The notes beneath the pieces were generated by a model, which had not been told where the DNA came from, made no database searches, and worked only from the letters and a program-made list of their open reading frames with translations. A DNA stretch of 64,000 nucleotides from an uncultured Candidatus Binatia bacterium (GTDB lineage: Bacteria > Desulfobacterota > Binatia > UBA9968 > JAJDTQ01). Shown here one piece after another: positions 6,647 to 31,742 of the stretch (its first letter is position 1; the number at the start of each line of letters is the position of its first letter). A program made the position numbers and the translations under genes. The stretch is taken from positions 1,984,001 through 2,048,000 of the forward strand of contig OZ243916.1 of assembly GCA_965213675.1 (NCBI GenBank). Reading direction: 5' to 3'.

Positions 6647-9600
6647 CTACTCCACACCGGGCGCGGGCACGGCCTCGGCGGGGGTATCGGCAGGCGCCCG
6701 GCGCCGGACCTTCGCAAGCACGTCCAGCCACAGGGAATAGAGCGTGGGCGTGAGAACCAGGGTGAACAGGGTGGAGACGGCGAGGCCTCCCAGCACCGCG
6801 GAGCCCAGGCCGCGGTAGAGTTCGGAGCCGGCGCCGCGGGAGAGCACCAGCGGCAACATGCCGAATACCGTGGTGGCCGTGGTCATGAAGATGGGGCGGA
6901 TGCGCGTGCGCACGCTGGCCAGAAGCGCATCCTGGGGCGTTTCCCCGGCGCGGATGAAGTTGAGGGTCTGGTGCACGATGAGGATGGCGTTGTTCACCAC
7001 GATGCCGGTGAGGATGATGAACCCCAGCATGGTGACCGTATCCATCTTGATGGTGGGCTCGGTGGCGTGGCCCAGGCTCACGGCCAGGACACCGCCGGTG
7101 GCCGCCAGCGGCACGCTGAACATGATGATCAGCGGGTAGCTCCAGGACTCGAACAGCGAACACATCACCAGGTACACCACCACCACGGCCAGCAGGAACG
7201 TCCACTTGAAGGCGTCCCACGTTTCCGCGAGCTTCTGCGCCTGGCCACTGACCTGGATGGAGTAACCCAGCGGCAGGTTGCGCCGCACCTCCTGGACCGC
7301 GCCTTCCTCCACCGCCCGCACGGCCTCCTCCAGCGGCATGGCGTGGTGCATGTTCGCGTTCAGCTTGATGGCGCGGTCGAGGTCCACGTGCTCCACCTTG
7401 GTGGGACCGTCCCCGGGCCGGATGACGGCGATGTCCGAGAGCTGCACCAACCGGCCCGCGCCGCCGGAGAGCATGAGCGTCCCCAGATCCTGGGTGTGCG
7501 CCATCTCCCCCCGCGGCCCCTTGAGGATGATGTCGATTTCCCTGCCGCGCTCCCGGAAACGCCCGGCGCGGGTGCCTTCCACCGCGGTCTCGATGACGTC
7601 GCCCACCTCGGAAGCGCGCAGGCCCAGGGCCGCGACGCGGTCGCGGTCCAGGTGAACGCGGATCTCGGGGTTGCCCCACTCGAACGACGAGTTGACGAAG
7701 TTCACCCCCTCCACCTGACGGATGCCGCCTTCGAGGCCCCGGGCGATGTTCCGGATGGCCTGCAGGTCGTCTCCCTTGACATCCAGGGCCACGTTGTTGC
7801 CGCCGATGAAGCCGCCCCGCTGGCGGAAAAGGGACGCCTGGGTGATGAACACCGCCTGGGTCCCGGGAATGCCGCCCACGGCGCGGCGCAGGGTCCCCAC
7901 CACCCGGCGCATGTCTTCGAGGCCGGTGTACGGTTCCTTCACGATGGCGCCCATGATGGGGCTGTCCAGGCGGATGACGGCGAACATGCGCTCTACCTCG
8001 GGAACGGCCCGGACGCGCGCCTCGATCTCCTTGATGATGGCTTCCTTCTGGTCGGTGTTGAAGCCCGGAGGCATCTTCACCACGCCGAAGATGAAGTTGC
8101 GGTTCCCCCGCGGCAGATAGTCCAACGGCGGTGCGAACCACCATGCCAGGGCCACCGAACCACCCACGATGAAGAGCACCACCGCCAGCCGCCGGACGGC
8201 GCCGCGCTGAAGCCACGCCAGCAGTCCGAGCACCACCCCGGAAAATCCGGCGCCGGCCCGGTCCAGCACGGACATGGCCGCGCGCAGGCGCGGGAACCGC
8301 TGCCGCGCCCGTTCCGGAAGGACGTGGGCCGCGAGCATGGGCACCACGGTGAGAGCCACCACCAGAGACAGGGCCACCGCCACGGACACGGCCAGGGCGA
8401 TGTCCCGAAAGAGCTGCCCGGCCTCCTGCCGCACGAACAGCACAGGCACGAACACGGCTACGGTGGTGAGCGTGGACGCCAGGATCGCGCCCCCCACCTC
8501 GCGCGCCCCGTCCAGCGCCGCGCGCACGCGCCCCTTGCCCATGTCGCGGTGGCGGAACACGTTCTCCAGCACCACCACGGCGTTGTCCACCACCATGCCG
8601 GTGGCAAAGGCCAGCCCGGCGAGCATGATGACGTTCAGGGAGGAACCGGCGATATTGAGGACCACGAAGGTGGTGACGATGGAGACCGGGATGGCCACCG
8701 CCACGATGACGATGCTGGCGGGGCTGCGCAGGAACAGCAGCAGTACCAGCACCGCCAGGGCCACGGCGAAATAGACGTTGCGCGTCACCAGGTCGATGGA
8801 GTCGTGGATGTAGTCGGTCTCGTCGTAGGCCATCTCCAGGCGGATGCCCTTGTCGCGGTAGCGCTGATCCAGCCGGCTCAGGGTCTCCCGGACGCCGTCC
8901 ATGACCGCCATGGTGTTGGCCCCGGAACGGCGCAGCACGCCTATGCCAAGGGCGGGCTTGCCGTCGATGCGCACGGCGAAATCCCGGTCCTCGCGGCCGA
9001 AAGACACCGCGGCCAGGTCGCGCACGTAAACCGGCCCCTGGCCGTCGTGCCGCACCACCACGTCGGCGATGTGCCGGAGTTCCTCGAACTGGCCCAGGGT
9101 GCGCACCACGTGCCGGCGCTTGCCCTCGCTCAGGTCGCCGCCCTTGACGTTGCGGTTCTCACGGGTGATGGCCTGCCGGACATCGGCCACCGTGATGCCC
9201 CGCGCCGCCATGGCGCGGGGATCCAGCGTCACGTGCACCTGACGGTCGCGGCCGCCGAAGCGCCACACCGCGCCCACGCCGGGAACCCGTTCCAACTGCG
9301 GCACGATGACGTCCTTCAGTTCCTCCCACACCTCATGGATATCCCGCTCCGTGTCCACCATGATCCACGAAATCGGGCTCTCCTCGTCGGTGTTGACCGC
9401 GCGGATGCGGGACTCGCCCACGTCCGGCGGAAGGCCTCGGACGGTGTCGAGCTTCTCGGAAACGCCCAGGCGCGCGATATCCTTGTTGGTGCCCCAGTCA
9501 AAACTGAGGACCACGCGGGAACGGCCCTCGATGGAGCTGGACGCCACCTGCTTGAGCCGCTCCACCGCATTGAGCCGCTCCTCCAGCCGGTCGGTGACCT

Positions 9601-18582: not shown

Positions 18583-18608
18583 TGTGGTGTCTGGTTGATT
18601 CGCGTCAT
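18579..18608 (+). repeat. MITE terminal remnant forming the whole GH84-senA spacer
   Basis: CTAGTGTGGTGTCTGGTTGATTCGCGTCAT, 1 mismatch to the MITE left end. Confidence 0.8.
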
Positions 18609-19911
18609 GGAAGACAAAACCGCATCCACCCGTGAAGTCCTGGGCACCCTGGAAGAGGTGCGCTCCCGGACCTTGGGCTTCGTTGAGGACCTGTCCGGGG
18701 AGCAACTCACGGTTCCCTTGCTGAACATCGTCAACCCCCCGCTCTGGGAGATCGGGCATGTATCCTGGTTTCACGAGCGCTGGGCGTTGCGGCATCTGCG
18801 CGGCCGCGATCCCATCATTGCCAACGGCGACGCGCTCTACGATTCCGCGGCCGTCCATCACGACACCCGCTGGGTGCTGGCGCTGCCGCCGCTTGAAGCG
18901 ACCCTCGCCTACAAGGCACGGGTCCTGCAACAGATCATCGAAGAGCTGCCCGCCCAGCGTTTGAGCCCGAAGGAAACCTACTTCCACAGGCTCGTGATCT
19001 TCCACGAGGACATGCACGCGGAGGCCATGACCTACACGCGCCAGACTCTGGGATATCCGCGGCCTCCATTCATGCGCCAACGCCAGGGCGCGGCCGGCGG
19101 TCCCTGCCCGGGCGACGTGGAGTTGCCGGGCGGCGAATTCATTCTCGGCGGCACGCCGGACCTGCCCTTCGTCTTCGACAACGAAAAATGGGGCCATCCG
19201 GTGACCGTGGCGCCCTATCGCATCGCCCGCGCTCCAGTGACGAACCTGGAGTTCGCCGCCTTCGTGGACGACAACGGCTACGGTGACTCGCGCTGGTGGA
19301 GCGACGCGGGCTGGCGCTGGCGGCAGGGCGAGGGGAGCGCCCATCCCGTCTATTGGAAACGCGAGTCTCCGGGACGGTGGCTGGAGCGGGTGTTCGATCA
19401 ATGGGGGCCGCTTCAAGCGGAGATCCCGGTGATCCACGTCAACTGGTACGAGGCCGAGGCGTATTGCCGCTGGGCCGGAAGGCGGCTGGCCACGGAGGCG
19501 GAGTGGGAGATGGCCGCGGCGGTGGACCCCGCCGGCGGCACAGATCCGGATGCCGCCAAGCGCCGCTACCCCTGGGGCGAGGTGCCGCCCGACCCCATCC
19601 ACGGCAACCTCGATTGGGCCGCTGGAGGCCGCCTGCCAGTGGACGCGCTTTCGGCGGGCGACAGCGCCGCCGGCTGCCGGCAGATGATCGGCAACGTGTG
19701 GGAGTGGACGGCCCACGCCTTCCACCCCTACCCCGGCTTCGTCCGGGACCCCTACAAGGAATACTCGGAGCCCTGGTTCGGCGACCGCAAGGTGCTGCGC
19801 GGCGGCTGCTGGGCCACCCGCTCCCACCTGATCCGCAACACCTGGCGGAACTTCTTCACCCCGGACCGCCGCGACGTGTTGGCGGGCTTCCGGACCTGCG
19901 CACGACACTAA
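18607..19911 (+). CDS. senA: selenoneine synthase SenA (EgtB-like DinB plus FGE-sulfatase domains)
   Basis: NPPLWEIGHVSWFHE, HEDMHAEA iron ligands, GNVWEW, EYSEPWFG, RGGCWAT; adjacent to senB. Confidence 0.85.
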   Translation: MEDKTASTREVLGTLEEVRSRTLGFVEDLSGEQLTVPLLNIVNPPLWEIGHVSWFHERWALRHLRGRDPIIANGDALYDSAAVHHDTRWVLALPPLEATLAYKARVLQQIIEELPAQRLSPKETYFHRLVIFHEDMHAEAMTYTRQTLGYPRPPFMRQRQGAAGGPCPGDVELPGGEFILGGTPDLPFVFDNEKWGHPVTVAPYRIARAPVTNLEFAAFVDDNGYGDSRWWSDAGWRWRQGEGSAHPVYWKRESPGRWLERVFDQWGPLQAEIPVIHVNWYEAEAYCRWAGRRLATEAEWEMAAAVDPAGGTDPDAAKRRYPWGEVPPDPIHGNLDWAAGGRLPVDALSAGDSAAGCRQMIGNVWEWTAHAFHPYPGFVRDPYKEYSEPWFGDRKVLRGGCWATRSHLIRNTWRNFFTPDRRDVLAGFRTCARH

Positions 19912-20050
19912 TGGCGTGGCACACGATGACGCGTGACAGGCCACGAATGTCTCGTCCTGTTCGACAACCCGGATGACAACACTTCGAACGAATTGGCCAG
20001 GACATCGGCCCATTGGATTGGACAACGAGTTGACACGAACAAGCACCGCG

Positions 20051-21007
20051 GTGGCCAGAATCGCGCTCGTGACTCCCGCTGGTCCCACCCGGCGCACCGG
20101 CAACCGGATTTCCGGGGGCCGGTGGGCGCGCATCCTGCGGGCGTCGGGATACAAGGTCACGGCCCTGGACCGCTACGAACGTGAACGCTGTGATCTGCTG
20201 ATCGCGTTGCATGCCCGGCGCAGTCATCCGTCCATCCGCCAGTTTCATGAGCGCCAGCCCGACAAGCCCATCATTGTCGTGCTGACCGGAACCGACCTGT
20301 ACCGCGACATTCACGTGGACGACGACTCCCGGGAGTCGCTGCGCTTGGCGACCCGCCTGGTGGTGCTCCAACGCAAGGGACTGGACGAACTCCAGCCGGG
20401 GCTGCACGAGAAGACCCGGGTCATCTACCAGTCCGCGCCAGCCCGTCCGGGCCATCGCCGCGACCGAAACCTGCAGTTCACGGTTACGGTGGTGGGCCAC
20501 ATGCGCCCCGAGAAAGACCCGTTCCGCACCGCCATGGCGGTGCGCTCGCTGCCCCGCACGTCCCGGATCCAGGTCACGCACATCGGCGACGCCTTCGGCG
20601 ACAGCTTCCTGCGCCGCGCCGAACGGGAAGTCGAGCACAACCCGCGCTACCGCTGGCTGGGCGACCTGCCCCACTGGAAGACGCGGCAACTCCTGGCCAA
20701 CAGCCACCTCACGTCCATCACCTCGCGCATGGAAGGCAGCTCCAATGTCCTGTGTGAAGCGCTGGCCTCCGGCGTGCCCGTGGCCGCGTCCAGGATCTCC
20801 GGTTTGATGGGAACCCTGGGCGACGACTATCCCGGCTACTACGAGATGGGCGACACCGCCGGGCTCAAGCGTCTCCTGCTGCGGGCCGAGAACGATCCGG
20901 CGTTCTATGAGAACCTGGCACGGCACTGCGCCAAGGTCGCCCCCCTGGTGAACCCGGACCGGGAGATCCTGACTTGGCAGGGGTTGGTCCGTGAAGTGAC
21001 GCGTTGA
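20051..21007 (+). CDS. senB: selenosugar synthase SenB (glycosyltransferase)
   Basis: TP...GNR...RWARIL, IALHARRS, VLTGTDLYRDI, VGHMRPEKDP, SRMEG, LGDDYPGYY. Confidence 0.88.
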   Translation: MARIALVTPAGPTRRTGNRISGGRWARILRASGYKVTALDRYERERCDLLIALHARRSHPSIRQFHERQPDKPIIVVLTGTDLYRDIHVDDDSRESLRLATRLVVLQRKGLDELQPGLHEKTRVIYQSAPARPGHRRDRNLQFTVTVVGHMRPEKDPFRTAMAVRSLPRTSRIQVTHIGDAFGDSFLRRAEREVEHNPRYRWLGDLPHWKTRQLLANSHLTSITSRMEGSSNVLCEALASGVPVAASRISGLMGTLGDDYPGYYEMGDTAGLKRLLLRAENDPAFYENLARHCAKVAPLVNPDREILTWQGLVREVTR

Positions 21008-21210: not shown

Positions 21211-22370
<1,160 letters not shown>

Positions 22371-22371
<1 letters not shown>

Positions 22372-23162
22372 CACTGGATCACCGTTCCTTTCCCCGCCAA
22401 CGCGTCTCGCACCGGGTGTTCCGTGCGGCCGTCGCTCATGATGACCTTTTCCGCGCCGTCCTCGAAGAGCTTGCGCAGCGCCAGCATCTTGCGCTTCATG
22501 CGCCCCTCCACCTGCCCCTCCCGCTGTTCCAGTTCACCCGCCCGGATGTGCGGCACCACGGTGCCCTCGTCGTCCTTGTCGGCGAGGAAGCCCGGCGCCT
22601 CGATGAGCTGCAGCACCACCTCGGCATGGAAGGCAGCCTGGAGCACGTTGATGATGTCGTCGTTCTCCGAGTTGATGGCGTTGTGGCGCTCGTCGATGAT
22701 GGGGATGGACAGCACCGGGGCGTAACCGCCGTCGAGCAGCAACTGGAACAGTTCCCTGTTGGCGCTCCGGGGCTTGCCCGAGAAGTCGCGTACGATGAGG
22801 GTCTTGCCGTTCTTGCGCACCCGGATGCCCTTGTTGCGCTGGCCCTGAATGGCGCGGCCATCGATGCCCGAAAGGCCCACGGCATTGACCCCATTCTGTT
22901 GCAGCAACTCCACGATGCGCTTGTTCTGAACCCCGGCGTAGCCCATCAGGATGGCGTCGAGCGCGTCTTTGTCCGACAGCACGCTGGTGTAGCCCGACAC
23001 CGACGTGACCACCTGGGTGGGGGTCCCGAGCCTGGCCGCGATGGCGTCGCGCACCGCGTTGGCGCCGTGCACCACGATGAACCGGTCGGACACGGCCGCC
23101 AGATCCCCGGCGATGCCCGGAAGGTTGATGTCGCTGCCGCCGCCGATCTTCACCAGTATCAT
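22371..23162 (-). CDS. lysZ: [LysW]-aminoadipate/glutamate kinase
   Basis: VKIGG, VVHGA, SVSGYTS, GRMKRK. Confidence 0.88.
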
Positions 23163-23797
23163 CGAAGGTGCTCCACCGTGTCGTTGGGGATGACGCGCCA
23201 GTCGCCGCCCTCCGGCACGGTTTCCGAGCTGACGGTGAAGCCGCCCTCGTTCTCGCGGGCGCGCAGCCTGAAGTAGTCGGGTTGTTCATTGAAGAACGAC
23301 CCGACGTAGACATTCTCACCATCGGCAATGATCATGTTCATGGCGCGCACGTAGCGAGTCCTGCGGACGATGATGTCCATCCCCTTGCGCATGGCCGCGG
23401 CCATGTCGCCCTTGTCGAAGCGCTTGACGAAGTTGAACACTTTTTCCGCGCCGATGCGGCCTTCCGCGTTGATGCGAACGCCGCGCAGTTCGCCGTTGAA
23501 GGCGAACACGTAGCGATCATCGGAGAACGGCATGTTGTTTGCCACCACGATGTTCTCGTCCCGGAACGCGCTGCGGGCGTGTCCCACCAGCAGCGTGGTG
23601 GCGCCGAACTGCGTCAGGTCGTCCTCCCAGATGGGCTTGATGTTGTGATAGAACCGCCACGCGCCGTCAACCGTGTAGGCGCATCCCCAGCCGTGGCCCT
23701 GGTACTCGGGACTGTTCCGGGCGATGCCGGCCAGATGGGACAAGCGCTCGCCGATGTCGAACGGCTCCCGGCTCTTGACGCACAACAGGCGACACAT
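23159..23797 (-). CDS. class II glutamine amidotransferase / EgtC-like Ntn hydrolase
   Basis: N-terminal nucleophile M-C-R-L, GHGWG, GHARSA, NNMPF, FNGEL, VSSE. Confidence 0.85.
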   Translation of the reverse strand: MCRLLCVKSREPFDIGERLSHLAGIARNSPEYQGHGWGCAYTVDGAWRFYHNIKPIWEDDLTQFGATTLLVGHARSAFRDENIVVANNMPFSDDRYVFAFNGELRGVRINAEGRIGAEKVFNFVKRFDKGDMAAAMRKGMDIIVRRTRYVRAMNMIIADGENVYVGSFFNEQPDYFRLRARENEGGFTVSSETVPEGGDWRVIPNDTVEHLR

Positions 23798-23809: not shown

Positions 23810-24856
23810 CTAGGGGTGGAGGCCCGGGAACTCGAGGCCCTCGGTTTCCTCGAAGCCGTTCATGATGTTGAAGGCCTGGACCGCCTGCCCGGCGGCGCCC
23901 TTCATGAGGTTGTCGAGGGCGCTCAGCACCACCAGCCGGTCCGACCCCTTCTCCTTCTGGAAGCCGATGTCGCAGTAGTTGGTGCCGCTCAGCAACTTGG
24001 GCTCGGGATAGCGGTAGATGCCGTCGGCTTCCTTGACGATGCGGATGAAGGGCTCCTTGCCGTAGGCCTCGCGGTAGGTCTTCCACACGTCCTTCTCTTC
24101 CAGCGGTTCGCGCAGGAACAAATGGCACGTCGCCAGGACGCCGCGCACCATTTCGATGGAGGTGGCGGAGAAGTACACCCGGACCGGCTCGCCGAACGCC
24201 AGTTCCTGGTAGATCTCCGCGCTGTGCCGGTGCAGGGTGGGCATGAACGAACGCACGGCGCCGCTCCGTTCCGGGTGGTGGGACGCGTCGCTGGCGGCGT
24301 TGCCGCCCTCGCTGGACCCCACCTTGACCTCCACCACCGTGCGCTCGGTGTCCACCAGCCCCTTCCTGAAGAACGGATAGACGCCAAGGATCGTGGCGGT
24401 GGCGTTGCAACCGGCGCCGGTGACGAAGCTCGCCTCCCGGATCTCCTCGCGGTGCAGCTCAGGAACCCCGTAGACGAACTCCTTCAAGAGCTCCGGGCGC
24501 TGGTGCGGCTTGCCGTACCAGCGCTGGTATTCGTCCACGTCGTTGAGCCGGAAGTCCGCGCTCAGATCCACCAGCTTCGGGGCGAGATCCCGGAACGACT
24601 CGATGCGTTCCTGGGCCTGGCCGTGGGGCAGGCAGAGGAACAGCAGGTCGCACGGCTTGAGCTCGTCCATCCTGCAGAAGCGGAGCTGCGTCCGCTTGCG
24701 CAGATTGGGATGGGCCTTGAACACGAACTTGCCCGCGAAGCGCTCCGAGGTGACCTCGCACACCTCCACCCGGGGGTGCCCCAGGAGCAGCCGCAGGAGC
24801 TCGCCGCCCGTGTAGCCGGACGCCCCCACGATAGAGACCTTCAGCTTCTCGATCAC
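23810..24856 (-). CDS. lysY: [LysW]-aminoadipyl/glutamyl-phosphate reductase (ArgC family)
   Basis: GASGYTGGEL, DLSADFRL, GAGCNAT, GSSEGG...HHPERS, DNLMKGAAGQA. Confidence 0.9.
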   Translation of the reverse strand: MIEKLKVSIVGASGYTGGELLRLLLGHPRVEVCEVTSERFAGKFVFKAHPNLRKRTQLRFCRMDELKPCDLLFLCLPHGQAQERIESFRDLAPKLVDLSADFRLNDVDEYQRWYGKPHQRPELLKEFVYGVPELHREEIREASFVTGAGCNATATILGVYPFFRKGLVDTERTVVEVKVGSSEGGNAASDASHHPERSGAVRSFMPTLHRHSAEIYQELAFGEPVRVYFSATSIEMVRGVLATCHLFLREPLEEKDVWKTYREAYGKEPFIRIVKEADGIYRYPEPKLLSGTNYCDIGFQKEKGSDRLVVLSALDNLMKGAAGQAVQAFNIMNGFEETEGLEFPGLHP

Positions 24857-25005: not shown

Positions 25006-26013
25006 CTACGGCGCGGGAGCCCGCAGCTTCACAGCAGCGTTGTCGAGGAACCGCCGCAGGTTCTCGGACATTGACCTCAGAAGGACCACCGGGAACTGCG
25101 GGTAGTCGTCCGCGTGCGCAGCGGCGGTAATCAGTTGACAGGCGATCCGCAAGGTCACGATCAGACCAAACGACCAGCGCACGCACGCATCGTCGATCGG
25201 ATTTGACGGTCGATTCAAGACCGCGACCAGCGATACATCGTCGCCGATGCACTCCGCACCAAGAGCCTCGGCCAAGGCCTTCGCTGTCCTCGGAAGCCTG
25301 TCGGGGGTCGTTCGGTTCGCGTGGGCCCACAGCCTGCCGACGACCGTCGGGTTCTTCGAAGAACTCGGCCGATAACTAGTCGGATTCTTGATCGCCTCCA
25401 AAGTCCTTGCAATCCGATCCAACTCCTCGTCGATGCCTCCACCTGTCTTACTTCCGGAGAGAACTGAATCCCAAAGGCTCTGTATCCGCCGCCCGTCGAG
25501 TTGTCGCGACGCGCGCAACCGGAGCAACAGCGCCTCATCGACCTCGTAGAGAATCCGCCGCAAATCGTCGAGCCCCGACGCCGCGTGGGAGAGCATCACG
25601 GCCGCCGATCGCGAGAGATCCTCAACGTGAACCGTCGCAGCTTGTCCGGGCTTCACGGGGAACCACTCTGGCAACACGATCGGCGATGACGTGTCAGCCA
25701 AACTCAACTCCTTGCGGCTGACAATCACCAGGTCGACTCCATGCCGCTCCCGGGCGACTTCATTCTGCACTTGAATATCGTCCTTTGTGCGGCGCAGAAC
25801 CTCTGACACGTCGTTCATCACAGAGTTCGGATCGACGAAACCGCCCGTACGCAGCACATGCGGAACGATGGCAAGCTCTCCACGTAGTTGCTTCAACTCT
25901 CGCGCGACATAGTCACGATCGGTGGAGGCCCAAACCCAGAACACGTTCAACGGTCGCGATTCCCGCCGTCGCGAGACACGAATCGCCTGGACTATGGTAT
26001 CCGGTTCCAACAC
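25006..26013 (-). CDS. hypothetical protein, partner of the STAND ATPase
   Basis: 335-aa ORF 15 bp downstream of the ATPase gene; no family recognised. Confidence 0.75.
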   Translation of the reverse strand: MLEPDTIVQAIRVSRRRESRPLNVFWVWASTDRDYVARELKQLRGELAIVPHVLRTGGFVDPNSVMNDVSEVLRRTKDDIQVQNEVARERHGVDLVIVSRKELSLADTSSPIVLPEWFPVKPGQAATVHVEDLSRSAAVMLSHAASGLDDLRRILYEVDEALLLRLRASRQLDGRRIQSLWDSVLSGSKTGGGIDEELDRIARTLEAIKNPTSYRPSSSKNPTVVGRLWAHANRTTPDRLPRTAKALAEALGAECIGDDVSLVAVLNRPSNPIDDACVRWSFGLIVTLRIACQLITAAAHADDYPQFPVVLLRSMSENLRRFLDNAAVKLRAPAP

Positions 26014-26028
26014 TTGTTTACCCCGCCG

Positions 26029-28449
26029 TCACGTCACCTTGGGTCGGACTGCTGCAGCGATCCGCCCGAGCGTCGGAATCCCAACACGAACCCAGTCGTC
26101 ATCGTACGACAGAAAGTTTGCCTGGGACGCCGAGCGCAGTATTTCGTTGTCGTCCGGTGGTGGCTCGCCCTGTGGAACGGGAATCCGACGCATTAGTTCC
26201 GGGAAACACGCGCGTTCCACCTTGAACCCCGTGGACCCATTGTTCGCCAATTCGCGAAGCACCCAGTACGCCGTGAACAGCCATGGGTTGTCCCGGTATC
26301 CTTGCGCCGACATCGCCTCCGCAGCCGCATACCTGAAAAAGTCATAGTCAGGACTCAGCAGAATCCTGTCAGCGTTCAGTTTGTTGTCGGCGAAGTCCGT
26401 AAAATCGCCATCCTGCACCCGCAGGCCGATTTGCGGCCGTCGTTTTTCGATGAGCCACTCCACGAACTCCCCTAGGACGTTCGCCGTTAAATACGGGTGT
26501 CCTGCCGTCTCCTCGAACAGCGCGTCTAGGAACCGTGCGGTAACTTCGATCCGGTCGGCTAGTATCTTGCGCACCAACTCCGAGAACTCACCGGTGGTCG
26601 TCTGTGGCGAGTGCTCAAACAATGGGAACGGATCCTGCTGGACATAGGGAGCGAGTTGGTTCTGATCCATGAGAATAAAATGGGCGTCCGGTTGCTGGCC
26701 CAGAAACACCAACACATTGTCGTAGGAAAACGTCATCAGTTGGTTGAGGATCGGTTGCACTACAGTGTGCCGAATACTTGGTTCCCGCTCGACAGCCGTC
26801 TTAAGTCTCCCGAATAGTGTTTCGTACTCATCGATCACTAGTACCATCCGCTTGTCTTCATCGTGGATGGGTGGTGCACACGTTGTGACCGCGTTCTCAA
26901 CGAACTTTTCGGAAATCATCTGGCCATCCGCCAGAGCCTCACACACGAGATGGTAGAACTTCATGTCGTCTGAAGATTGCGACACTCCACACGTCTGACT
27001 GACAACATTCGCATCTCCACTCGTTGAGTCCATATCAAGACAGGCCGTCGTTTTACCACTCCTTCGCACGCTACACCACAATCGTACGCCAGGCCGCCGT
27101 TCGAAGGTCCGAAGAAGGTCACGTACGCTCGTGCGGGCTACGTGAAAAACCGTGGCTCGGTTCCGAATCTGATCCTGAAGCGGGAACTGGCGTGCGAAAT
27201 TGAACGTGATCGGCGTAGTCGTGCTCCAAGTGCTACGAAGCGCCATAACCGCGGCATCCCAAACTCTGAACGCTCGGTCGGCCGATTCTTCCCGCATCTC
27301 GCCTGCGGGCACGACGATCTCCGCTAGTCCACTCTGTTCGGAGGCAATTTTCCGCACGTCCGGCTTCAACGGCGCGATCACCAGCGTCACCTGCCGGCGG
27401 ACCGCGTCATCCAGCTCTGCCGGCGAGACGAAACTGTCGTCTAGGAACGCGTTGACTTCGACAAGCCGCTGCGATGCGGCATCGCGGGGGGGCCGCACGG
27501 CCACGTCGAGCCGCCGTTCGTGCCACCTATATTGTCCGGCGACCGGAACGGGATGATAATCGTCATCCGGTCGATCATGGAACCGTTGTAGTGCGTCGAG
27601 GAGGGGAAGGACGGTCGTTCTCAGGCCGTCAACGAGAGGGCCGGGCGCCAAGCGATCGACGAGGCGGTCGGCGTGACGAGGAAGCAGAAATGCTATGTAG
27701 TGCATCCATGAACGCTGGAACCTAGGAAGAACGGCGTTCCCTGTCTGCTGTTCAAACGACACCGACGAGTAACCTTCAAGAATACCGCTCAATGCGGCCG
27801 AAACCAGCAAACGCAGCGCCGAGGTAAATCCGTGATCGGACGTGGCCGATGACCGAACGGAATAGAAGTCCAACGGCAATGCTAGAAACCGCGACAGACC
27901 GTTTAGCGACTTCCTGAGTGCTTCGTCGTGATCATGTTTAGCACGTGTGAATCTGTACCCTTGTGAGAACACATCGCGGGTATGATCGGCGAGCGGACCT
28001 GAGAGGGAACGGCCGTCGTCGTCGGACGACAGGTGACGCATCTCATCAAGGAACTGACCGAGAAATTCTGTAAGGCAATCCCGATAGAACGTGGACCACT
28101 GGAAAATGTGCTGTTCACGGAGGGCATTGAGCGCTCTCCGAAAATCCGCTGCGAGTTCCAAGAGATTCCGGGTGGAGTCCCTTGGAGCAGACCCAGCAAT
28201 CGGTATTTCAATGACCTGCGCCGTCTCAGAGTCAGAGCTTCTGGTCTTCCCCCCGAGGATTCTCAACAGGTTATTGCGGCGCTTCGGCCGAAACCGTTGA
28301 AGCAAGTTTTCGATTTCCAGGCGCCATTCGGAGAGCTCGATGTCATCCATCTGGCGAACAAGCGCCTCCAGCGCTCGCTCCGGGCGTTCAGCTTCAAGCT
28401 TGTCTAACCAACGCCTGATCTCGGTAAGACGTTCTTCAATCGTCGACAT
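26029..28449 (-). CDS. P-loop AAA/STAND-like ATPase with an unknown N-terminal region
   Basis: Walker A VRRSGKTT, Walker B LVIDEYE, helical GxP motif ETAGHPY. Confidence 0.8.
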   Translation of the reverse strand: MSTIEERLTEIRRWLDKLEAERPERALEALVRQMDDIELSEWRLEIENLLQRFRPKRRNNLLRILGGKTRSSDSETAQVIEIPIAGSAPRDSTRNLLELAADFRRALNALREQHIFQWSTFYRDCLTEFLGQFLDEMRHLSSDDDGRSLSGPLADHTRDVFSQGYRFTRAKHDHDEALRKSLNGLSRFLALPLDFYSVRSSATSDHGFTSALRLLVSAALSGILEGYSSVSFEQQTGNAVLPRFQRSWMHYIAFLLPRHADRLVDRLAPGPLVDGLRTTVLPLLDALQRFHDRPDDDYHPVPVAGQYRWHERRLDVAVRPPRDAASQRLVEVNAFLDDSFVSPAELDDAVRRQVTLVIAPLKPDVRKIASEQSGLAEIVVPAGEMREESADRAFRVWDAAVMALRSTWSTTTPITFNFARQFPLQDQIRNRATVFHVARTSVRDLLRTFERRPGVRLWCSVRRSGKTTACLDMDSTSGDANVVSQTCGVSQSSDDMKFYHLVCEALADGQMISEKFVENAVTTCAPPIHDEDKRMVLVIDEYETLFGRLKTAVEREPSIRHTVVQPILNQLMTFSYDNVLVFLGQQPDAHFILMDQNQLAPYVQQDPFPLFEHSPQTTTGEFSELVRKILADRIEVTARFLDALFEETAGHPYLTANVLGEFVEWLIEKRRPQIGLRVQDGDFTDFADNKLNADRILLSPDYDFFRYAAAEAMSAQGYRDNPWLFTAYWVLRELANNGSTGFKVERACFPELMRRIPVPQGEPPPDDNEILRSASQANFLSYDDDWVRVGIPTLGRIAAAVRPKVT

Positions 28450-28929: not shown

Positions 28930-29805
28930 TCAGGACGCGCCCCTGCGCCCCTGTTCCTCACGGCCCGCCTTGAGCACGTGCTCCACGACCAAGCCGGGAA
29001 TGTTGACGCCGGTGGTGTCGATGCTGTTGCGGAACTCCATGGTGTAGTTGACCTCGTTGACCAGCAGGCCGCCGGGAGTTTCAAACAGGTCCACGGCGAC
29101 GATGCCGCCGCCCACGGCCCGGCCCGCGCGCACCGAAAGGTCTCGCAGTTCGTCCGTCAGCGGACAGTTCTCGGCGCGCCCGCCCCGCGCCGTGTTGGTG
29201 ATCCAGTGATCGCTGTAGCGGTAGATGGCGGCCACGCACTCGTCACCGATGACGAAGCTGCGGATGTCGCGCCCGGCTTTTTTTTCGACGTACTGCTGGA
29301 TGTAGAAGATGGAGTGATGGTAGCTGCCCAGGATCGCCTTGTGCTCCAGGATCGTCTCCGCCGCGTCGCGGTCGTTGACCTTGGCCAGCAGCCGGCCCCA
29401 GGAGCCCACCGCGGGCTTCAGCACCACCGGGTAGCCCATTTCCTCGATGGCCTGCAGAGTGGATTCCTCGGTGAAGGCGATGCGCACCTCGGGCTGCGGC
29501 ACGCCGTGCTCTTGCAGGTGCACCGAGGTGAGGATCTTGTCGCCGCACACCGTCGCCACCGACGACGCGTTCACGCAGCGCACGCCGGCGCTCTCGAACA
29601 GCCGCAGGCCGTGCAGCGCCCGTGAGTGGTTGATGCAGCGCTCCAGCAGCACGTCCAGGTCGAACTCGTCCCTGCCCAGGTTGAACGAGAGCTTCCGGTC
29701 GTCGATCATCTGAAGCTCCACGTCGGGATGCTTCCGGAACTCCTTGATGAGAAGCTTCTCCTCGGGCCGGACCAATGAGTGCAGCAGACCGATCTTCAAG
29801 CTCAT
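28930..29805 (-). CDS. lysX: LysW-amino acid ligase (RimK ATP-grasp)
   Basis: [42 protein letters not shown]. Confidence 0.92.
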
Positions 29806-29966
29806 TCCCCCCAGTCTTCCTCTTCCGAGGGCGCTTCTTCCACCGCCGGAGGATCGAGGCTCGTGACCTCCAGCTCGGTGCCGCAGTCGGCGCAGGCGAT
29901 CAACTCGCCCTCCACCGCGTCGTCCTCCAATTTGAACTCCGCTCCGCAAACCGGACACTCAACCAT
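29802..29966 (-). CDS. lysW: amino-group carrier protein LysW (54 aa, absent from the ORF track)
   Basis: MVECPVCG...CADCG...EEEDWGE: zinc-ribbon CxxC pairs and C-terminal EDWGE; ATGA overlap with lysX; GGAGG RBS. Confidence 0.95.
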
Positions 29967-30261: not shown

Positions 30262-31650
30262 TTACGACGGCACGGCCTTTGCAACCGTGATGATGGCGTT
30301 TCGCAAGATCCCAACGATATCGTCGATCTGCTCATTCGTGACCACCAGCGGCGGACACACCGCCAAGGCGTGAGTGCCGCATACCCTCAGCAGCAGCCCG
30401 TTGGCGAGGCACTCGTCGCAGACCTGCCGGGGCACCTGTTGCTCCGCCGCAAAGGGCTCCCTGGTCGCCTTGTCCTTGACCAGCTCCACCGCGGCGATGA
30501 GGCCCTTGCCACGCACCTGGCCCACCATGGGCAGTTCCGCCAGCGCCGCCAGTCGTTCCTGCATGTACGCGCCCACCTCCGCCGCCCGCTCCACCAGCCG
30601 CTCCCGCTCGATAATGTCCAGATTGGCCAGCGCCGCCGCGCATGCCACCGGATGTCCGGTGTAGGTAAAGCCGTGGTAGAACGCGTCGTCGGCCGTACCC
30701 AGCAATGTCTGGAAGATCTCTTCCCGGAACAGCATGGCGCCCAGCGGCAGGTAGCCGCTGGTGAGGCCTTTGGCCGTCACCAGCACGTCCGGGGTGACGC
30801 CCTCGCCCGCGCACGCAAACAGGCTCCCGGTGCGCCCGAATCCGGTGATCACCTCGTCGCAGACCATCAGGATGCCATGCCGGTGGCAAATCTCCCGGAT
30901 GCGCGCCAGCCAGCCTTGGGGCGGCACGATGACCCCGCCCACCCCCTGCACCGGCTCGGCGACGAAGGCGGCGATGCTGTCCGGGCCGTACCGCTCCACA
31001 AGCCGTTCCAGCTCGCCGGCGCAGGCGAGCTCGCAGTCCGGCCAGGTCTTGCCCAGCTCGCACCGGTAGCAGTGGGGCCGTGCCATGTGATGCACATCCG
31101 GCAGGCCCGGTTCCATCTGCCGGTTGAAGAGCGGGATGCCGGTCAACATGGCGGCGCCGCTCGACGAGCCATGATAGCCCTGGTTGAGGGTGACGAAACG
31201 CGTCCGCCCCGGTTGGCCCTGGGCCTTCCAGTAGGCCCGCACCAGCCGGATCATGCTCTCGTTGGTCTCCGAGCCGCCCGAGGTGAACATCACGCGGGTG
31301 AGCCCTTCCGGCGCCATCTCCGCAAGCCTCGAAGCCAACCGGATGGTGGGTTCCGAGGTAGGGCCGATGAGCGTGGGCGCGTAGGCGAGACGGTCCATCT
31401 GGTGCGCCACCGCGCGGGTGATCTCTTTGCGGCCATGGCCCACGTGGACGTTCCACAGGGTGGAGAGACCGTCGATGTAGCGCTTGCCGAGGGCGTCCAG
31501 GAAATAGACGCCTTCCGCGCGCACGAACACCGGCACGCCCTCCGCCTGGTGCCGCGAGAGCGGCACGAAGCCGTGGACGAGATGGTCCCGATCGGCCCGG
31601 CTCATGGCCGCGGCGCGTTCGAGATCGACGGGGTCCTGGAAGTCCATCAT
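30262..31650 (-). CDS. class III (omega) aminotransferase
   Basis: SGGSETNE, GYHG, DEVITGFGRTG, AKGLTSGYLPLG, HGFTYTGHP. Confidence 0.92.
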   Translation of the reverse strand: MMDFQDPVDLERAAAMSRADRDHLVHGFVPLSRHQAEGVPVFVRAEGVYFLDALGKRYIDGLSTLWNVHVGHGRKEITRAVAHQMDRLAYAPTLIGPTSEPTIRLASRLAEMAPEGLTRVMFTSGGSETNESMIRLVRAYWKAQGQPGRTRFVTLNQGYHGSSSGAAMLTGIPLFNRQMEPGLPDVHHMARPHCYRCELGKTWPDCELACAGELERLVERYGPDSIAAFVAEPVQGVGGVIVPPQGWLARIREICHRHGILMVCDEVITGFGRTGSLFACAGEGVTPDVLVTAKGLTSGYLPLGAMLFREEIFQTLLGTADDAFYHGFTYTGHPVACAAALANLDIIERERLVERAAEVGAYMQERLAALAELPMVGQVRGKGLIAAVELVKDKATREPFAAEQQVPRQVCDECLANGLLLRVCGTHALAVCPPLVVTNEQIDDIVGILRNAIITVAKAVPS

Positions 31651-31742
31651 CCGCTCCGAAGTGTCACGTTCAATGAATCCAGCGGGCTGGAAGGACACCG
31701 CTCTCCCGATCCGTCATTCCCGCTTCCCCCACGGCCGTGGCC

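Follow-up and report, generated by a model that had tools for sequence, protein, structure and literature searches.

A cysteine Ntn-fold protein of LysW operons that lack LysK is a candidate LysW-product hydrolase

For the last step of lysine/ornithine synthesis on the carrier protein LysW, LysK is to our knowledge the only published enzyme. LysK is a metal-dependent M20 peptidase (NF003367, TIGR01902), and the protein described here, for which the same reaction is proposed in the same type of operon, has an unrelated fold and chemistry, those of a cysteine N-terminal nucleophile (Ntn) hydrolase. Its closest described counterpart in fold is EgtC (4zfj, 4zfk, 4zfl; TIGR03442), likewise a stand-alone protein of ~210-235 amino acids with the Cys-Ntn class II amidotransferase fold, which cleaves a gamma-glutamyl amide. 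We analysed a 64-kb stretch of DNA from an uncultured Candidatus Binatia bacterium (the window; C1:1984001-2048000 of a 4.53-Mb genome, 97.7% complete with 8% contamination) in which a LysW operon carries the gene for such a protein, here called the Ntn protein, between lysY and lysZ. A preliminary description of the window had inferred that this hydrolase replaces LysK, and that is the best-supported reading of our results: the absence of LysK, the mutual exclusion of the two enzymes in loci and in genomes, the active site and a model of the complex with LysW all speak in its favor, and it is from these that we infer the substrate and reaction. We put at roughly 0.7 the probability that the Ntn protein is a Cys-Ntn amidohydrolase acting on the gamma-acyl group of the C-terminal residue of LysW in place of LysK.

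The operon lies on the minus strand in the order lysW-lysX-[two inserted genes]-lysY-Ntn-lysZ-lysJ, and both family scores and translations reproduce the order given for it in the preliminary description. The carrier gene lysW (29802..29966) encodes 54 amino acids with the CxxC...CxxC zinc-ribbon pattern and the tail EDWGE, alignable with 16 LysW proteins of related loci. The gene for the LysW-charging ATP-grasp ligase, lysX (28930..29805), scores 343.3 bits against TIGR02144 (cut-off 275.6) and its product also matches the Pfam families LysX_preATP_grasp and RimK; its ATG overlaps the lysW stop, and the longer open reading frame listed shows homology only from residue 52-56 onwards. Past the insert follow lysY (23810..24856), encoding a [LysW]-aminoadipyl/glutamyl-phosphate reductase of the ArgC family (TIGR01850, 394.1 bits, cut-off 233.6), the Ntn gene itself (23159..23797), with 212 codons and an MCRLL start, lysZ (22371..23162), the [LysW]-aminoadipate kinase gene (NF010659, 242.9, cut-off 223), and lysJ (21211..22374), for the [LysW]-aminoadipate/glutamate semialdehyde transaminase (TIGR00707, 440.8, cut-off 410.05; NF042418, 466.5, under its cut-off of 700). 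A LysW with this cysteine pattern and the EDWGE tail, accompanied by LysX, LysZ, LysY and LysJ, identifies the set as a LysW-pathway operon. The Ntn gene is tightly placed within it, with a 12-nt gap between the lysY stop (23810-23812) and the Ntn ATG (23797-23795) and a shared ATGA joining the Ntn TGA (23161-23159) to the lysZ ATG (23162-23160); both the spacing and the overlap had been described earlier and can be read directly from the sequence. The cluster had also been said to contain no M20 peptidase, and the window indeed gives no PF01546 match.

This arrangement is widely conserved. A word-indexed search of 5.8 billion proteins returned 2780 relatives of the Ntn protein at E<=1e-3, which among the matches listed are nearly all 207-230 amino acids long and carry either no name or the label 'class II glutamine amidotransferase'. 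When 1.84 billion cluster representatives were searched in full with HMMER, 351 matches passed E<=1e-3, of which 201 also passed 1e-10 and 63 passed 1e-30, numbers so low that the family must be compact and well separated from other amidotransferases. Scanning species genomes for the Ntn gene, and reading its neighbors by tblastn, yielded 47 loci (loci and genomes are cited below by L and G numbers). By their record titles these belong to Binatia, Melioribacteraceae, Calditrichia, Rhodothermaceae, Gemmatimonadota, KSB1, Arenicellales, other Gammaproteobacteria and Bdellovibrionota, with one bin labelled Woesearchaeota; going by record labels, at least nine phylum-level lineages possess the Ntn-type operon. 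The next gene downstream of Ntn is lysZ in all 47 loci, followed by lysJ in 46 (the exception being L048), and lysY lies upstream in 44: L024 ends at a contig edge, L042 and L047 have no upstream lysY match, and in L043 a second lysX-like gene intervenes. LysW is present in 45 of the 47, and lysX is kept in every complete Ntn-type locus. Two variants of the layout were seen. One Binatia genome has lysY-Ntn-lysZ-lysJ twice in tandem (L031:1840-10168), the second lysZ being shortened (8636-9073). Some Ntn-type operons contain two lysX-like genes (L043:1449-4327 and L044:5254-6926), pairs that recall the LysX/ArgX pairs of bifunctional archaeal systems.

The relationship between Ntn and LysK was examined in a second set of loci, chosen regardless of the releasing enzyme. 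A search with LysZ listed relatives that were all at least 67% identical, among which there were no LysK-type operons; because it gave close relatives only, metagenome contigs were scanned instead with an alignment of 17 LysW proteins, giving 80 LysW-bearing contigs, a sample skewed towards LysW resembling that of the window. The Ntn gene lies between lysY and lysZ in 28 of the 80, lysY is followed by lysZ without Ntn in 10, and the remaining 42 either stop short of the slot or have no lysZ, so that among contigs with a readable slot the Ntn type is commoner than the LysK type, by 28 to 10. LysK directly follows lysJ in L091, L105, L116, L120 and L139 and adjoins lysJ in L138 (NCBIfam), and as a positive control these six LysK proteins score 244-323 bits against TIGR01902 and 281-431 bits against NF003367. 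Searching with the six by tblastn placed LysK after lysX in L079 and L084. Together with L146, these eight metagenomic loci make nine LysK loci, in which the gene follows lysJ in six (seven with the inverted L138) and lysX in two, in contrast to the lysY-lysZ slot of the Ntn gene. The LysK-bearing locus of G064 has the classical lysW-X-Y-Z-J-K order. Co-occurrence with lysK in homologous operons, which the preliminary description held would tell against replacement, was found nowhere by tblastn: neither the 76 Ntn loci (the 47, the 28 and the window) nor the nine LysK loci contain both genes. Five non-Ntn loci also lack LysK, of which four are cut within or before lysJ; in L123 the 3 kb past lysJ hold a homocitrate synthase gene and a homoaconitase-like gene, and no LysK.

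The same exclusion is seen at the level of whole genomes. Phylogenetic profiling, also proposed in the preliminary description, was carried out on three evenly drawn phylum samples (403 genomes in total), and LysX-bearing genomes were found to carry Ntn or LysK, never both. LysX is present in 18 of the 403, with Ntn only in 14, LysK only in two and neither in two. Among 121 Gemmatimonadota genomes LysX occurs in seven, five with Ntn (245-278 bits) and no LysK and two (G064, G118) with LysK and no Ntn; the other 114, one of which (G082) is marked as unpublished, have neither enzyme. In the phylum of G006 (131 genomes) all seven LysX-bearing genomes have Ntn ~2 kb away, and none has LysK. The 385 genomes without LysX contain no LysK over cut-off and no close Ntn match. 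They do contain two distant relatives of ~261 amino acids (83-85 bits; G248:C105:6280-6966 and G281:C22:105767-106453), which we take to lie outside the family, in a sister subfamily. In a separate comparison, TIGR01902 gave a match over cut-off in none of 26 Ntn genomes (the host and 25 others) vs four of 14 control genomes. The host genome itself, in which a search for lysK had been suggested, has no match over cut-off, the best against TIGR01902 being 56.2 bits (cut-off 163.1) and none reaching E<=1e-40 against NF003367.

Structural modeling assigns the protein to the Ntn fold. An AlphaFold2 model built from a 70-sequence alignment has a predicted local distance difference test score (pLDDT) of 97.2 and a predicted template modeling score of 0.93, and shows the four-layer alpha-beta-beta-alpha Ntn fold. 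Its best Foldseek matches in the PDB are the EgtC structures 4zfk, 4zfj and 4zfl (E ~1e-12, template modeling score 0.77-0.82, 17% identity), followed by 1te5, 3mdn, PurF and GlmS, all with probability 1.00. The Ntn protein gives no PF01546, TIGR01902 or NF003367 match. The preliminary label 'EgtC-like' therefore holds for the fold, and fails for the family: the TIGR03442 score is 43.7 against a cut-off of 218.65, and the Pfam matches fall below gathering (GATase_4, 20.0 vs 23; GATase_6, 20.9 vs 27). Profile searching of the PDB puts 3mdn first (6.5e-11) and EgtC after it (1.7e-7), and the profile alignment to EgtC covers the N-terminal half alone. A true EgtC of an ergothioneine- or selenoneine-type pathway might have been expected from the fold match together with an EgtB-related gene 1.3 kb past lysJ. 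However, that neighbor scores as SenA and is accompanied by SenB, we know of no gamma-glutamyl intermediate in the selenoneine route, and the Ntn gene keeps its place within lysW operons in different phyla whatever its neighbors, with none of the association with egtA, egtB, egtD or egtE genes that marks EgtC. The proposed substrate also differs from that of EgtC, in that the gamma-glutamyl group would be borne by a protein and its alpha-amino group blocked. EgtC orthology is thus extremely unlikely, and we rejected it on the family score, the SenA/SenB context and the lack of any TIGR03442 match over cut-off in the genome.

The active site retains most, but not all, of the elements of class II amidotransferases. 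Cys2 is present in 73 of 74 family members from the analysed loci, and an M-C-R start in 75 of 76 tblastn matches of related loci, the exception being a partial match. Invariant in the 74 members are H73, R75, N101, G102, G113 and the stretch G116-A117-E118-K119. In the profile alignment to 3mdn, HARS corresponds to HVRAS and FNG to HNG, and the N-terminal Cys, the Arg and the Asn-Gly are shared with the glutaminase domains of GlmS and PurF and the orphan structures 3mdn and 1te5; the Arg and Asn-Gly presumably serve in carboxylate binding and as the oxyanion hole. The [ST]-D-[ST]-E motif of class II amidotransferases is, however, not preserved: the canonical G-S-T-D-S-E of 3mdn aligns to G-x-x-G116-A-E, with the Asp replaced by an invariant Gly. 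We take this Asp to be the residue that binds the free alpha-amino group of Gln in these enzymes. Its replacement by Gly would fit a gamma-glutamyl substrate that continues as a polypeptide, as at Gly53-Glu54 of LysW.

These features bear directly on whether the protein could be an ordinary glutaminase or amidotransferase subunit that acts on free Gln and supplies glutamate or ammonia to the pathway. The fold, the Cys, the Arg and the Asn-Gly would all suit such an enzyme, as would the name 'class II glutamine amidotransferase' in the source databases. The Ntn protein nevertheless has no synthase domain, in contrast to GlmS and PurF, and no synthase partner, lacks the residue presumed to hold the free alpha-amino group, and is restricted to organisms with LysX (14 of 18 LysX genomes vs no close match in 385 without it); furthermore, the predicted complex puts the tail of LysW into the active site. 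A free-Gln glutaminase is for these reasons very unlikely, and it was set aside as the leading explanation on the Gly-for-Asp exchange and the LysX-restricted distribution.

The complex of LysW with residues 2-212 of the Ntn protein was predicted with a score of 0.61 (runs 0.64, 0.44 and 0.61), vs 0.02 for the best of three controls. In the tool's calibration, 58 of 80 solved complexes attained the mark for this score, as did 2 of 110 mismatched pairs, counts that apply only roughly here because our own alignments were used. The runs share at least 67% of contacts, and the pLDDT of the partner is at least 80. The confident interface comprises residues 2, 75-78, 89, 100-110, 115-117, 119-120 and 146-148 of the Ntn protein and residues 31 and 45-54 of LysW, and the acidic LysW tail is modeled on the nucleophile Cys2, the Arg, the Asn-Gly and the G116 stretch. 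This is support for, rather than proof of, binding of the LysW tail at the Ntn active site.

Taken with the exclusion of LysK, this leads to a model in which removal of the initiator Met would make Cys2 the N-terminal nucleophile, which would then attack the gamma-glutamyl isopeptide between LysW-Glu54 and the alpha-amino group of the completed lysine or ornithine. As the amino acid is set free, a LysW-gamma-thioester would form on the enzyme, and its resolution by water would regenerate LysW, a job otherwise performed by the unrelated metallopeptidase LysK. In an alternative scheme, argued by analogy, the thioester on Cys2 would instead be resolved by the alpha-amino group of fresh aminoadipate or glutamate, so that LysW would be recharged without ATP and LysX would serve for priming only. 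Acyl transfer is known from gamma-glutamyl transpeptidase, ArgJ and other Ntn enzymes, and the operon evidence serves transfer and hydrolysis equally well. No observation parts the two, but lysX is kept in every complete Ntn-type locus, and we consider transfer improbable.

A second role is suggested by the last residue of LysW. The tail EDWGQ, in place of EDWGE, is encoded in 11 of 45 genome loci and 4 of 28 Ntn metagenome loci, vs none of 13 non-Ntn or LysK metagenome loci and neither of two LysK-type loci (L144, L146); it is also found in 6 of the 42 unclassifiable metagenome contigs. On Gln-ended LysW the same glutaminase chemistry, directed at the protein-bound Gln, would produce the Glu that LysX needs. 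The pattern fits an enzyme acting on the gamma position of the last residue of LysW and is suggestive only. It could also be taken to mean that the Ntn protein serves carrier maintenance alone, deamidating Gln-ended LysW or stripping misligated amino acids, with an unlinked hydrolase such as an M20 peptidase releasing the product. Among classified loci Gln-ended LysW occurs only with the Ntn gene, and the host has 14 PF01546 matches that could include such a hydrolase. As a main role, however, maturation of Gln can be dismissed: in 58 of 73 Ntn loci, among them the window, LysW already ends in Glu and needs no maturation, yet the gene is kept with its invariant active site. Moreover, the sole TIGR01902 matches of G012, G014, G017 and G024 score 27-36 bits and G025 has none, indicating that these five Ntn genomes have almost no ArgE-, DapE- or LysK-like M20 enzyme; and LysK, otherwise linked to the operon, is missing precisely where Ntn is present. 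Maintenance as the only function is accordingly unlikely. Joining the two themes, the Ntn protein might be the hub of a carrier cycle, activating Gln-ended pro-LysW and passing the LysW gamma-acyl group, by way of its Cys thioester, from lysine to new aminoadipate or glutamate. This is a long shot; if true, the LysW pathway would save ATP and run as a cycle, much as the acetyl pathway does through ArgJ, and LysX would be needed for priming alone. In a further variant of the carrier, L103 has tandem LysW-like genes (L103:3169-3690), the first of which ends EDWADS, not EDWGE or EDWGQ.

Several observations weigh against replacement of LysK by the Ntn protein. The 14 M20 matches of the host fall at about ten distinct places, all outside the window, and an unlinked peptidase among them could release the product. 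The difference in Gln-ended LysW between Ntn loci (15 of 73) and others (0 of 15) is not significant (Fisher p=0.064), and related genomes do not count as independent. In the sample from the window's own phylum (151 genomes), LysX occurs in four: the host (G000) and G156 have Ntn, and G170 and G181 have neither enzyme. In G170 the genes stand in the LysK-type order, lysW-X-Y-Z-J, on a contig that stops 32 bases past lysJ, and the contig of G181, 2950 bases long, ends inside lysY; as both loci are truncated in this way and the genomes are ~90% complete, we regard them as uninformative rather than contrary. The identity of the product adds to these points. In L038, lysW is followed by a homocitrate-synthase-like gene (NCBIfam), and 19 further loci have a match to it (tblastn, 57-84% identity) inside the operon or beside it; 14 Ntn-confirmed loci have such a gene inside or next to the operon, which links this type of operon to lysine synthesis by way of aminoadipate. 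The host genome has no homocitrate synthase over cut-off (best 275.6, cut-off 413.55), and its best matches to the homocitrate synthases and homoaconitase linked to the operon elsewhere are no close homologues, being 25-33% identical and situated in or near a leu cluster. It also encodes LysA (528.8 bits; C1:3505959), ArgJ (422.1; C1:3775857), ArgB (258.5; C1:3499614), adjoined by an ArgD-like gene, and a type-2 ArgC (368.7; C1:687599). The diaminopimelate-lysine and acetyl-arginine routes thus look complete in this genome, and its operon might make lysine, ornithine or another compound; the host LysW operon looks redundant, or else makes something other than the expected product.

The number of independent events behind the exclusion must also be considered. 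In a quick IQ-TREE tree of LysZ (87 rows, rooted on the host ArgB, matches with fewer than 230 aligned residues dropped), the LysZ proteins of all 73 Ntn loci, including the window, form a single clade with support of 100 in the Shimodaira-Hasegawa-like approximate likelihood ratio test and a stem of 2.62 changes per column, and the LysK-type and unresolved LysZ fall outside it. The tree indicates that the Ntn-type operon arose once and then spread across phyla by transfer. This single origin is a further point on the opposing side, since the exclusion of Ntn and LysK then represents few independent events and not many replacements. The long stem suggests that LysZ may have changed sharply when Ntn became coupled upstream of it, a hint of a possible physical or kinetic link between the two. 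The LysZ of L046, the bin labelled Woesearchaeota, groups with that of a KSB1 bacterium inside the bacterial Ntn clade, and its contig may be mis-binned or transferred.

The Ntn family would be an undescribed one, and its operon a variant of the LysW pathway with a newly predicted activity for a known fold. A full-text literature search, with supplements and most subscription journals outside its scope, found no paper in which an enzyme of the Ntn, EgtC-like or class II amidotransferase kind is connected with LysW, and, again with supplements outside, none assigning the Ntn gene or naming a substitute for LysK. In the portions available, a 2026 GapMind preprint (10.1101/2024.10.14.618325) mentions LysW for LysZ only, the genome paper on Caldithrix abyssi (PMC5317091) describes a locus of eight genes with 'LysWXZYJ and Hcs' and states that the other steps need further analysis, and a 2025 FEBS J paper (PMC12998189) treats LysK as the hydrolase. 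If the Ntn protein does replace LysK, a pathway gap would be filled in many bacterial phyla, and automated pathway reconstruction would be wrongly reporting a lysine gap in organisms with the Ntn operon. The class II amidotransferase fold would furthermore gain a protein-directed activity, and the functioning of a carrier whose gene specifies a terminal Gln would be explained.

The remaining features concern the surroundings of the operon. Between lysX and lysY the window carries a 3.9-kb insert of lower GC content (0.57-0.60) with two paired genes, both outside the pathway and on the minus strand. The larger (26029..28449) encodes 806 amino acids with a GKT motif and has no Pfam, NCBIfam or PADLOC match; in a language-model atlas its features score 0.97-0.99 to AAA-like, AAA_22 and nSTAND1 clusters. 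The smaller (25006..26013) encodes a 335-residue protein with no family match, and occurs once in the genome. PADLOC and a repeat search found no match and no flanking repeats, and tblastn found the insert in none of the 47 related genome loci; it may be a mobile or defence-type cassette. Convergent to lysJ, on the plus strand (window 18595-21007), lies a selenoneine cluster of SenA (selenoneine synthase, 507.1 bits vs 420) and SenB (selenosugar synthase, 382.7 vs 300), SenA being the EgtB-related gene mentioned above, and a SelD gene is likewise found near the lys operon of L047. On the other side, just upstream of lysW, the minus strand encodes a class-III (omega-type) aminotransferase (window 30262-31698), and a LysJ-like match (31-33% identity) is found at this position in 20 of 22 Binatia-type loci (L017-L037, L053).

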